A stretch of DNA of 64,000 nucleotides, taken from contig OZ024743.1 of assembly GCA_964016885.1 (NCBI GenBank), forward strand, positions 353,214,001 through 353,278,000. Reading direction: 5' to 3'. Below, piece after piece: positions 3,777-34,725 of this stretch (positions are counted from its first letter, which is position 1; the number at the start of each line of letters is the position of its first letter). The DNA comes from Eledone cirrhosa (taxonomy: Eukaryota). The notes beneath the pieces are model-generated. The model was given only the letters and a program-made list of their open reading frames with translations, searched no databases and was not told the DNA's origin. Both the position numbers and the translations under genes were made by a program.

Positions 3777-3938
3777 AATATGGTTTTATAAATATAGTTT
3801 CCATTTATTTAATAGCATTGAATATTTACTCCAGTTAGCTGTTGAGTGCTCTAAATCAGTTATAAACATTTATGTTTGTCGGACTTCCAACAAATTAAAT
3901 ACAACTTCTACTGAATACTATATGTATAGTAAAAAGTC

Positions 3939-4774
3939 GGGTTAAGATATAGCCACATGTTGAACGGAGAGCGGGAGAGAAAAGAAGAAAGAGGGTCTAA
4001 AGCATGAAATGAGAAACGAGAGAGGTATAGCGAGAGAGAAGAGAAGAGGAAAGCGGGAATGAATTCGAAGGAGCAGAACTTTTGGAGAATTGCGAAAAAG
4101 GATAAAAATAATGGAGAAAACTGAATTAACAAGAAAAATAGAACTTTCGCGTCATATGAATCATCAGCTTCCTTGTATACCAGCATAGCCCACGCAACAG
4201 AACCTAAATTTCTGTTGTTCTGACGCTGGAATAGGGGAATAAGAGAGCAGTGGGACACGTCTATACCTAGCCACGGTCGACAGGAAAAGAGGCTATCTAT
4301 TATTCTGGTGGGAAGAGCAGCAGCAGTAGGTGACAAGAGAGCGTAAGTATCAACAGCAGCAGTAGTAATAACAATAATAACAAGGGAGAGGTGATAGCGG
4401 GAGAAACAAAAGTAAATAGATAGAGGGGACGAGAGAGAAACAAAATAGGTAAATAGATAAAGATATAAAGAGTTACCTGTTTCTGGCACCATATCCGTTC
4501 AATTTTGAAAGCCAACACGATTCAAATTATGCATGTAAACATTTTTTGAAAAAGTTTGAAGCGATGAGTGTATATGAATTTTCATAAAATTGTAATATTC
4601 TCAGCACGAAATACTATATATATATATGGTAAAATCTCAGGTTAAGATATAACCACATGTTGAACGGAGAGTAGGAGAGAAAGGAAGAAATAGAGTCTAA
4701 AGCATAAGATGAGAAATGAGGGGTATAGAGTGAGAGGAGAGAAGAGGAGAGGTGAAGAGGAAAGCGGGAATGAG
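3939..4774 (+). repeat. Unclassified element with diverged ~130-bp direct repeat (3939-4070 and 4640-4774)
   Basis: GGTTAAGATATARCCACATGTTGAACGGAGAG...GAGGAAAGCGGGAATGA occurs twice, each preceded by TACTATAT...GTAAAA. Confidence 0.6.
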
Positions 4775-4804
4775 ATATTTATATATATATATATATATAT
4801 ATAT

Positions 4805-4968
4805 AGTAATAATAATAAATTTGAAGACTAAAATTCAAAGAGGGCTCGATAAGGATAAATATATATCAAATATATAAGAACCGTAGAGCAAATATTTATT
4901 AAAATAACAGATTAAAGTTTAAGCAAAGAATCTCTGCTTTCACCCTTTAACGGGATCTTCTGAAACTT
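4805..4968 (-). mobile_element. Solo PLE 3' terminus (hammerhead plus tail), same family as 28050-30775
   Basis: Near-identical reverse complement of about 30612-30775; flanked by (TA)n on both sides. Confidence 0.88.
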
Positions 4969-5020
4969 CATATATATATATATATATATATATATATATA
5001 TATATATATATATATATATA

Positions 5021-5470
5021 CGATATTAACAAATGGAAACTATATTTATAAAACCATATCTATTTTATTATACATATTTCAAGGATACCATGTTAAATTA
5101 TGGTATGCTTTCATCAGACAAAATACAATATATACCAGTTTTATAAATAAATATTGACATACCCTTACAAAATGCAACCGTTAGTTTTGGAAGACATATC
5201 CCGATGTCTTCCAAAACTAACGGTTGCATTTTGTAAGGGTATGTCAATATTTATTTATAAAACTGGTATATATTGTATTTTGTCTGATGAAAGCATACCA
5301 TAATTTAACATGGTATCCTTGAAATATGTATAATAAAATAGATATGGTTTTATAAATATAGTTTCCATTTATTAATATCGTATATATACTCCAAATACTT
5401 GTCGAGTGCTTTATATCAGTTATAAAAATATTTGCTTGTTGTATCCCAACAATTTAAATAGAACTTTTGC
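5021..5470. mobile_element. Short palindromic PLE twin with tail
   Basis: Arms 5021-5197 and 5204-5380 are an almost perfect inverted repeat with a 6-nt spacer; the tail 5388-5470 is on one arm only; lies within (TA)n; homologous to the terminus of the 417-3908 element. Confidence 0.92.
5276..5340 (+). ncRNA. Type I hammerhead ribozyme
   Basis: TATTTTGT-CTGATGA-AAG-C-ATACCA...TGGTAT-C-CTT-GAAA-TATGTATA-ATAAAATA. Confidence 0.82.
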
Positions 5471-5849
5471 ATATATATATATATATATATATATATGAAG
5501 TTAGACCCGGTTGGTTTTGTAATGTTTAATGAGCAAACATTGATTCTGTAAAAGGATGATAATCCAGTCTTCAATTTCTGCTTTTGTTTCAAAGCTTAGA
5601 ACTATTGTTTTACTTTCTGTGCAAGGTTTACGTGTTCTCAATCTAATCTTGTTGATTTTAGAGAAATCAAATATTTTTACTTTCAATTATTATTTCTTTG
5701 TGCGAAAATTAGAAACCATTATCATTTTCTCTTTTGTTTGATTAATTAAATATATTTCGCTATTGTGTACTTATTTTTTAAACTTAAGCTTCTTCATTGT
5801 GGATATGTATTGAACCTTGGTGATTTTTTTCAATTAATATATATATATA

Positions 5850-31840: not shown

Positions 31841-32479
31841 TATATATATATATATATATATATATATATATATATATATATATATATATATATAAGATAT
31901 ATATATAACCACATTTTACCTATAAGATATGTATGTATATATATGTGAGTGTATGGGTGAAATAGAGCGAAAGAAACAGCAACATATAGCTTACATAAAA
32001 AAGGAAGCCAGTATGTCAGTATATTGCTTAAATGATGGTAAGAAAGTAAGAGAAACTTTTGCATCTGGGAGGAATGATAGGAATTATACCTATCGTCATA
32101 TAATATCCATTTACCTTGCTAGCAATGGATATATACACACACATACACACACATATGTTGTTGTTGTTTAGCCCTAGATCAACCCAGATTGAGTAGACTT
32201 ATGATGAAAGACATTCCAGCAGTGACTTTCTTGTCTTTGAAAAAGTAACTTGGACTACATTATTGAATATGTCATTTCCTATTTTTAAAACTGATTCAGT
32301 TACTATTTCTAGTAAACTGTACAGTCATGTAAAGGCTCCCTCATTGGGTCTTATACACACATATATAAAAGTACGATACAAAGTGAGGTGGTATACGAAA
32401 AGATATATCATAGAAATGATAAGCATATTTGGAGGAAGACTGAAGGAGAGCAGATACACTCCAACATGGACTAGTTCCA

Positions 32480-33625
32480 ACAGGAAGTTGGGTGAAGCTC
32501 TCCAGCAATGGAATGAGTTGGGCTTGTCTCTTCTTGAGAAGGTGGAGGACAGTCGAAGTCAGAGAACTTGGAACAGCATAAGTTCGAAGACCACCTTCGA
32601 CTCCCTCTTCTTCCAGTCAGATCAGTTTGCAAGGTGCCACTTACTATCTGCCAGCACCAAATACTCAGGCGACTGGGTCGATGCCCTACCCGTGGTCAAT
32701 GTTGGTGGCCTACTCAGCCTGGACGAATTTCGTGTCTCCGTCGCCCTCAGAGTGGGAGCCGACGTCTGCATGGGTTTGAGGTGCCGATGCGGCAAACTCC
32801 TCGACTCCACAGGCCTCCACGGTCTTTCTTGCTGCCTGAATGCCTGCCGCTTCGCGCGTCACACGGAGCTAAACCTCATTCTGAAGAGAGCTTTGGCCCG
32901 GAGCGAATATCCCTCAGTCTTGGAACCATCTGGGCTGTCCAGAAGTGACGGCAAAAGACCTGACAGCCTTACCCTCTTCCCCTGGTCAAGAGGCAGGTGC
33001 CTTATCTGGGACATCACTGTTAGTGACTCTTTTGCTCTTTCCCACATCCTGGACGCTGCGGTTAGGACAAGAGCCACAGCTTCCGCAGCTGAGCGGAACA
33101 AGACCCTCAAATACTCTGATCTGTCGGCCAGCTACATTTTTCAGCCTGTGGCTTTTGAGATGTTTGTGGGAGTGAGGCCGCTGACTGCGAGGTTCCTCTC
33201 TTCACTGGCGGCTCGCCTAATAGAGGTAACTGGCGAATCTTGTGAGGGCGCTTGACTGTTTCAGCGCATCAGCCTCGCCATCACCCAAGGCAATGCTGCA
33301 AGTGTGCTGGCTTGCCTCAAAAATCAATACTCCTCGCGACGCTGCGGTCTTTTGCTCTGGTGTTGGCTCGGTTGTTCCCCCCTTCCTTTACATTTTCTTT
33401 AATAGTGTAATATTAAAAGAATATATATCTTTCTGAATGAATCGCAAGCAGCTTATAATGTTATCGAAGCATTTGTAATGTTATTTATGTATATATTTGA
33501 AATATATTTATGGTATTCTACTGTAAATTTATTTATATGTTTTGTTTATATTTTCATTCTGAAAGAATTGCAAACGATTTGTAATGTTATTTGTAATGTT
33601 ATTTATACAAATGTGAATAAAATAC
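32480..33625 (+). mobile_element. CRE-like non-LTR retrotransposon 3' part with restriction-like endonuclease
   Basis: SGDWVDALP...FRVSVALRVG, CRCG...HGLSC knuckle, RHTELN, EP...DGKRPD...W...LIWDITV, AERNKTLKY, then QRISLAITQGNAA after a stop; AATAAA near 33616. Confidence 0.88.
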
Positions 33626-33703
33626 ACACATTACAAAGTCACAGTAGATAGATCATATAGCAAGAAGTATTGAGAAAAAGTTACACACACACACACACAT
33701 ATA

Positions 33704-34439
33704 TCTGTATATATATAAAGACCAAGTTTTATGTATGTGTGTGTGTGGACAATTTTTAATGAGGGCTCATATATTCTAAACCATTCATGCGATTTCTTTG
33801 AAATTTTTTACAGAGCTTCTCCTTGCACAAAACCTGTACATGATCTACAAAGGCTTTCAAAAATCGATATTGGGGCATTTGGAGACATTAAAAAAGTTTC
33901 GGTTATTTGTGTCAATTTTCGTGATTAAGTCAGACAAGAATTATCTTTCGTAATTCGGCTCATTCGGATTTTAATTTACTCTTTGTACTTGAAACAAAAG
34001 GTACGCTTCCTTGAGACTAACAATATCATTTTGTATATTTCACAACCAGCAATTTCTAACAGATTACTAAGTTAAGTTATAGATTTGACATTGTATAATT
34101 TATCGTTTCAAACTTGATGTTCATACATTAAGTGATGTCATAACTTTTACAATATTATGCTTTGTACATAATAGTGTCTATTATTCACTTCACTTCTCTA
34201 TTTCATGATGCGCTTTTACTGCTGTCAAACAATTTATACCTAGACTGGATTTCTGTTGTTACATGGTATAACGGATGACACCGAGCTCACATATTAATTA
34301 TTTTGATGGAATAGTGCCTAAGGTTTTCATGTTTACATAAAGTACATTTTTCTTCTATGTATTCAAATTTACTTTGTTTAGTTTAATGAACTACATCGAA
34401 AGCTACTTGAACCGTCCAAAGGACGGGTAGTTTAGCTAG
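33704..34439 (+). mobile_element. Non-autonomous Helitron
   Basis: 5' TCTGTATATATATAAAG; 3' hairpin CCGTCC-AAA-GGACGG then CTAG; A/T insertion site. Confidence 0.88.
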
Positions 34440-34449
34440 TATATATATA

Positions 34450-34725
34450 TGATAATAATAATAATTATAATAGTAATAAACGAAAGATATATTAAATATG
34501 TCCTCTTCCTGTTTTGGTTTATATAATACATAAAACTTTACATCTTCGAAGTATATATAATAAAATAAATAGAGATGATATAAAGTATATATATTTCGTT
34601 TATTACTATTATTATTATAATAATACTCCGGATAAATTTATACCGTTGAGTGTTTGGCATCTGTTATATATAAGAATCAGTTGATTACAAATCAACTAAC
34701 TCTTTTTTCATTCATTGATTATATA
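34450..34725. mobile_element. Decayed short PLE twin terminus
   Basis: AATAGTAATAAACGAAA inverted against TTTCGTTTATTACTATT; decayed GAAGTATATATAATAAAATAAATA; ACTC...GTTGAGT tail. Confidence 0.6.

Follow-up and report, generated by a model that had tools for sequence, protein, structure and literature searches.

The 64,000-nucleotide stretch of the Eledone cirrhosa genome considered here (contig OZ024743.1, positions 353,214,001 to 353,278,000; hereafter the window) holds a series of Penelope-like retrotransposons (PLEs), several of which lie in (TA)n as inverted twins with a tail on one arm only. The tailed arm carries a short hairpin-like motif, termed hairpin 1, and full-length copies carry a second, hairpin 2; insertions of these elements nearly always end a few nucleotides before one or the other. 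The elements display the features of the Hydra clade and are, as judged by protein motifs and architecture rather than by placement in a tree, Hydra-clade PLEs. The features that define this clade, including an RWK-type motif and a DKT replacing DKG, are given by Craig et al. (2021; PMC8557442).

The single open reading frame (ORF) of these elements, a reverse transcriptase (RT) followed by a C-terminal GIY-YIG-type endonuclease, is represented by the 709-residue frame of family D at three loci of the genome (L009, L002 and L020), which bears RWR, DKT, a CxCx5C linker and CxxC/CxH near the C-terminus, without CCHH; the endonuclease motifs of element H are the same. The target is (TA)n, which 229 of 266 mapped ends join. 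The relevant features of the window, in window positions, are as follows.

323..351, plus strand: hairpin 1 of family G, with an imperfect upper stem; tail ending near 400 in (TA)n
411..1370, minus strand: long arm of element A, with its untailed end at about 411 and a hammerhead core at 519; hairpin absent
3720..3760, plus strand: type I hammerhead core in the tailed arm of element A
3828..3847, plus strand: hairpin 1 of element A; family tail end at 3912
4844..4889, minus strand: hairpin 1 of a short D-family tailed copy absent from an earlier sequence-only reading
5013..5470, strand not assigned: palindromic twin of element B with its tail, arms at 5013-5197 and 5204-5388
5388..5407, plus strand: hairpin 1 of element B
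25319..25509, strand not assigned: twin of element C, hammerhead core at 25380; the family is without a clear hairpin 2
25444..25464, plus strand: hairpin 1 of element C
25515..27867, minus strand: element H, with a 5'-truncated Hydra RT-endonuclease frame at 25915-27867; its untailed end stops 6 nt before the position of the family's hairpin 1, which is missing from the window copy
28046..28409, minus strand: short inverted arm of element D, with the untailed end
28403..29749, plus strand: element D, 5'-truncated Hydra RT and GIY-YIG-type endonuclease frame with one premature stop
30618..30641, plus strand: variant hammerhead core of family D
30690..30734, plus strand: hairpin 1 of element D, with G-C as the first pair; the tail stops at about 30775
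30800..31840, strand not assigned: twin of element E, its arms at 30800-31109 and at 31390-31699, with a hammerhead core at 31592 and a tail extending to 31840
31705..31764, plus strand: hairpin 1 of element E
34625..34651, plus strand: hairpin 1 of element F, an older A/B-related family in the form of a short twin

Predicted hammerhead ribozyme cores lie in the pseudo-long terminal repeats (pseudo-LTRs) of A, B, C and E, with a variant core in D, and a core-pattern scan of the window found no intact core in F or G. A Pfam scan of the window frames returned 0 families. The 72 Rfam matches at E ≤ 1 include no structured-RNA family over the motif sites and no match at the hammerhead-core sites of elements A to E. 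Family D is young and abundant, with 133 scored matches of 96-100% identity out of 59,307 candidates in the 3.0-Gb genome.

A bulged hairpin on the tailed arm

The sequence-only reading had described a covarying RCTC...RTYGAGY stem, confined to the tailed arm of twins with, for the most part, little other similarity and preceded by a TA-rich stretch. All seven of the four-letter pairs that it named are present at the positions it gave, with RTY preceding every 3' half, and the restriction to tailed arms holds, as 6 of the 16 hammerhead-core matches listed for the window have the motif 41-71 nt downstream, each of them on a tailed arm (those of A, B, C, D, E and the unnamed D-family copy at 4844-4889 on the minus strand). 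Five further core matches lie on untailed partner arms without the motif, and the remaining five are likewise without it. The supposed dissimilarity stands only in part, since A shares 82% identity with B, and F resembles the A-type copies at about 70%, so that not all six families are unrelated. The bases before RCTC are usually AU-rich, but they form no alternating (TA) run and are GC-rich in one family.

The motif is predicted to form a bulged hairpin consisting of RCTC-Y, a variable upper stem, R, a 2-nt bulge and GAGY. The minimum-free-energy fold at six of the seven named sites has basal and upper stems separated by a 2-nt bulge in the 3' strand; here the nucleotide that follows RCTC is the pairing partner of the R in RTY, which makes the bulged hairpin the unit. 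The bulge is UU, UC or UA, and is 1 nt long in the numbered family F5. An alternative pairing of the 3' half with its own downstream flank was rejected, as it would have no room for a loop and as a flip of the third pair leaves the flank unchanged. One more abundant family of short elements, with a perfect hairpin 1, is found at L249 and L252, in the (TA)n flank of an F-family copy, and may be non-autonomous.

A second hairpin upstream of the ORF

Hairpin 1 is thus real, but the sequence-only reading, with one motif per element, missed a second copy that follows the tail end. The ends at 30 family-D loci fall at two positions, just before the motif or at the tail end, and eight of these loci read past the tail end; in these read-through copies hairpin 2 starts 2-4 nt after the tail end and is followed by the ATG. 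Two predictions made beforehand were borne out in other families: in family E, hairpin 2 follows the tail end in four read-through loci; and for element H, whose window end is motif-free, tailed relatives have hairpin 1 six nt further on, with hairpin 2 after the tail end in one relative (L290). No read-through copy of families A, B, F or G was found among the loci examined, and their hairpin 2 is accordingly unseen.

Full-length starts were also sampled by a protein-motif pattern independent of the hairpin, which gave 2061 Hydra N-termini against 0 for the control. The N-termini examined, 30 as loci and 40 hand-picked for diversity among the 100 matches listed, fall into 17 families, most of which have two hairpins between the hammerhead and the ATG. 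Hairpin 2 is located 15-45 nt upstream of the ATG. The two hairpins are spaced 65-231 nt apart, and tail length follows this spacing.

The pair states of these hairpins were counted by eye, with one entry per family and hairpin and no p-value attached. Among 37 family-level hairpins the first pair is A-U in 14, G-C in 20 and mismatched or mixed in 3 (Watson-Crick in 34/37), while the fifth is Watson-Crick in 35/37 (C-G, U-A and one G-C); in hairpin 1 alone (n=21), this fifth pair is C-G in 9, U-A in 10, G-C in 1 and mismatched in 1. The second pair is flipped in one family (F12, hairpin 2). These counts are suggestive of compensatory changes.

Insertion ends

Ends were mapped to 18 single-copy family references over the window and all loci collected, with 800 kb of unselected DNA among them. 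The minimum was set at 9 matched G/C, which excludes microsatellite matches; 8 overlapping loci were dropped, family H was included, and the 37 of 266 ends not joined to (TA)n were set aside. Of the 229 (TA)n-joined ends, 120 lie 0-12 nt 5' of hairpin 1, 86 lie before hairpin 2 and 23 lie elsewhere. The 206 ends inside hairpin windows compare with about 20 expected were ends uniformly placed, a disparity that excludes chance by position and ties the arm boundaries to the motif, as had been claimed, rather than leaving them scattered. Many loci had been found with tail-bearing queries, and the fair figure is therefore that of the unselected 800 kb, in which 36 of 42 ends fall in hairpin windows.

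Ends are offset by about -1 to -8 from the hairpin despite the varied spacing, and of the 17 references in which a hairpin 2 was assigned, 14 have the tail end at the same offset from it as the untailed end has from hairpin 1. The hairpin 2 of F6 was reassigned to an inner partner, which moved 4 ends from the unclassed group to the second class. The 23 ends elsewhere include 6 that represent the family C tail end and a group of 3 at +128 to +133 in F1/F11, at the site of a long-range 5' half.

The two classes of end are combined in the twins themselves. In 47 of 51 outward-facing inverted pairs of a single family, one end belongs to each class, with the tail ends of F2, F1, F11 and F13 classed by offset cluster rather than by hairpin, an assignment on which 4 of the 47 pairs depend; two pairs have two hairpin-1 ends and two have an unclassed end. 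As nearly all twins have one end of each kind, the one-sided tail is the stretch between the hairpins.

Relatives in other animals

Marine samples yielded 20 Hydra PLE loci (L298-L317) on contigs that had been assigned to bacterial genome bins but are most likely misplaced animal host DNA. Of five upstream regions read, four have two hairpins before the ATG and the fifth is an inversion junction. As read by eye, the third pair is changed on both sides in hairpin 1 of L299 and in hairpin 2 of L301. Fourteen downstream flanks comprise six with hammerhead, hairpin 1 and tail, five ending after the hammerhead without a hairpin, one at a contig end and two without a pseudo-LTR. The tailed ends of L299 and L304 lie in (TA)n, 4-5 nt before the hairpin 2 of the same locus. 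A metagenome scan gave 7 loci, of which 3 were read, and a single hairpin follows the hammerhead in L291 and L293, apparently the same site; no relative was found among viral contigs.

Within the published Hydra consensi of File S7 (PMC8557442), clear hairpins are evident in three of six, variants in two and none in one. Hydra-1_Ajap has two hairpins at its 5' end, and its 3' end stops before the first.

A model for the choice of insertion ends

Taken together, the position of the ends and the repetition of the hairpin make it likely that each hairpin binds one RT-endonuclease and sets the RT start just 5' of its stem, giving both insertion ends. As the arm that ends at a hairpin never includes a copy of it, the hairpin would act from the template, on the 3' side of the base copied first. 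The protein would cut both strands of the (TA)n target, and the hairpin would present the mostly AU-rich bases upstream of it to the cut (TA)n strand. One 3' end would prime before hairpin 1 to yield the untailed arm, and the other before hairpin 2 to yield the tailed arm, with two RT molecules working on one RNA. Both cDNAs would then truncate and join head to head as an inverted twin, the tail of which would be the RNA between the two start points. This reading agrees with the in vitro behavior of the Poseidon element PAc, where two internal starts bound the tail and both strands are cut (Frangieh et al. 2024; PMC11167929). The earlier idea that a conserved stem sets initiation is likely correct, given the paired changes and the fixed distance from the untailed end, except that the stem would account for both ends and not one. 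The companion idea of a TA-rich segment pairing with the target is not supported, as such pairing would span a few bases at most and would not be universal, and PAc starts without homology to the cut DNA (PMC11167929).

Several observations weigh against this model. The bulged fold is not obtained for hairpin 1 of family G, and folding of single sequences gives modest z-scores (-0.5 to -2.8). In family C (F2) the tail end is sharply defined but the hairpin-2 position holds just a 3' half-site, and the hairpin-2 5' halves of F6 and F1/F13 were assigned only after the end positions were known. Pairs 2-4 are near invariant, so that part of the signal is sequence conservation; with related families, two partners set post hoc and counting by eye, the covariation is suggestive and does not amount to a significance test. 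Among the published consensi, Hydra-1_Obim is without an evident hairpin, and Hydra-1_Crog and Hydra-1_Amil have variants only (PMC8557442). Within the window, a hammerhead-bearing twin at 55577-56250 has a tail of about 30 nt without an RCTC/GAGY hairpin.

The source of the RNA for tailed arms that bear the ORF is a separate matter. None of 29 family-D ORF copies reads on into hairpin 2: the end precedes hairpin 1 in 12 and hairpin 2 in 11, falls within hairpin 1 in 1, and the other 5 copies are broken. The 5' pseudo-LTRs of the family D read-through copies are short, with 7 of 8 starting inside their own locus and none reaching the ORF. Because no ORF copy reads into hairpin 2 and these pseudo-LTRs are short, an ORF-bearing tailed arm would need a hairpin 2 downstream of the ORF. 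Such a template might be supplied by a hammerhead-made circle, or by a rarer multimer or template jump; otherwise the tail end would be inherited, with priming taking place in read-through (UA)n. A hammerhead-made circular template has been proposed in general terms (PMC4209133). On a more speculative reading, the absence of hairpin 2 from every genomic 3' end, together with the half of ORF-bearing arms that stop in front of it, would reflect a circle or multimer in which the 5' hairpin pair lies downstream of the 3' untranslated region. The fuller scheme, in which an RT dimer on two copies of the bulged hairpin primes both (TA)n strands from such a hammerhead-made template, is offered tentatively, as somewhat less than an even prospect. 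If true, it would derive tails, inverted twins, pseudo-LTRs and the conserved hammerhead from one mechanism.

The principal competitor to a start set at each hairpin is that only hairpin 1 acts at insertion, with the tailed end inherited: transcripts of tailed copies would enter the flanking (UA)n, the second strand would prime by simple homology, and hairpin 2 would load the protein or control translation near the ATG. Its closeness to the ATG, at only 15-45 nt, fits that role, as does the family C tail end retained without a clear hairpin 2, and inheritance would also explain why no inserted 3' end holds hairpin 2 (0/29 family-D ORF copies). It is nevertheless unlikely, for it leaves unexplained the equal offsets at both hairpins across 14 of 17 references, varied spacings and other animals; some factor must still have set the tail end in every family, and PAc uses both sites in vitro on RNA extending past the tail (PMC11167929).

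A role for the motif as DNA is quite improbable. The endonuclease would recognize it in the donor or cDNA and cut, or carry out resolution, a few bases upstream, so that the ends would be cleavage points and not RT starts, and here may be counted the tail sequence reportedly required by the D. virilis Penelope endonuclease (as cited in PMC11167929), the attribution of the tail to endonuclease-mediated resolution (PMC8557442) and the high proportion of invariant sequence in the motif, its conserved RCTY-like 3' flank included. A single-stranded structure of sense polarity is indicated instead by the bulge, by the G-U pairs and by paired changes that span loops of 4 to about 100 nt, and a motif that marks the end of an arm without being part of it could act only from the template. 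It is also very unlikely that the hairpins direct cutting of the RNA, whether by a host nuclease or with the hammerhead, or mark stable RNA 3' ends at which RT then starts. Although PAc RNA-seq read ends match the start sites (PMC11167929) and the hairpins are always downstream of a hammerhead, the purified PAc protein alone initiates internally on longer RNAs, hammerhead mutants had no effect there (PMC11167929), and tens of nucleotides separate the hammerhead core from the untailed end downstream of it.

Other features of the window

The twin at 55577-56250 is a perfect 316-bp palindrome in (TA)n with a weak Hammerhead_HH9 match, and relatives of it occur in tandem arrays at L231 and L236. 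The hammerhead core of family D (30618-30641) has an A instead of the conserved U4 in every copy seen, and that of family H (25583-25606, minus strand) is another non-canonical core; given the youth and abundance of both families, the change may be tolerated or cleavage may not be needed. Selenocysteine recoding of the in-frame stop of the D frame was rejected, since other copies are without that stop. The H frame (25915-27867, minus strand) is longer than that of D between the RT thumb and the endonuclease, with N/R-rich inserts that resemble the asparagine-rich insertions described for rotifer Penelope elements (PMC3846280).

Hydra insertions are stacked side by side at 323-5470, 25319-27980 and 28046-31840, each using the (TA)n run adjoining an earlier insertion. 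Other retrotransposon-like frame fragments, RT- or endonuclease-like by eye, occupy 32197-33255, 42361-43179, 45086-46459 and 49785-50411. A short dispersed repeat, likely a short interspersed element (SINE), is found at 1-60, 2940-3125, 12670-12800, 18557-18695 and 23100-23255, and one likely-SINE copy splits the tailed arm of element A.

Comparison with known systems

The motif bears on how a PLE chooses where to begin copying and on how its inverted insertions and one-sided tail arise. In other retroelements, the 3' stem-loops of R2 and of long interspersed element (LINE) and SINE RNAs recruit RT for target-primed reverse transcription, and the predicted Hydra hairpin resembles them as a cis RNA structure that likely binds RT and fixes its start. 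Those stem-loops are 5' of the start and copied into the insertion, whereas the Hydra hairpin is 3' of the start, is left out of the arm that starts there and is present as a pair. PLE RTs are the closest relatives of telomerase RT, and the telomerase template boundary element, which is 5' of the template and stops synthesis, is comparable as an RNA stem that a related RT uses and that keeps a constant distance from the segment serving as template. The analogy drawn in the sequence-only reading fails on polarity, as both Hydra hairpins are 3' of the last inserted base (in the ORF sense) and mark the start, not the stop.

The closest known elements are those of the Hydra clade of C-terminal endonuclease-bearing PLEs as delineated by Craig et al. 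(2021; PMC8557442), which share the protein motifs, the pseudo-LTR hammerhead, the (TA)n target, the inverted 5'-truncated partner and the one-sided tail. The accessible text of that work describes no RNA hairpin at the ends, and ascribes a tail of 30-40 bp to endonuclease resolution. The closest biochemical parallel is PAc (Frangieh et al. 2024; PMC11167929), in which, as here, two internal RT starts bound the tail; its protein cuts and extends both target strands in vitro and is predicted to dimerize. PAc differs in belonging to another clade and in starting 111-118 nt inside the ORF, at one AC-rich stem-loop, and the accessible text of the study describes no repeated or covarying motif.

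No description of the motif was found in the full-text literature searched, the coverage of which largely leaves out subscription journals and does not include the PAc figures. The element clade is known, and a paired cis RNA motif predicting both insertion ends is apparently new. The motif furnishes an annotation rule for the boundaries of Hydra elements and a handle on the purpose of the hammerhead. Where the one in vitro study, in its accessible text, gives two start sites and no transferable rule, the short motif of the Hydra clade predicts both ends across many families and several animals, and so provides a testable rule for the start of copying.

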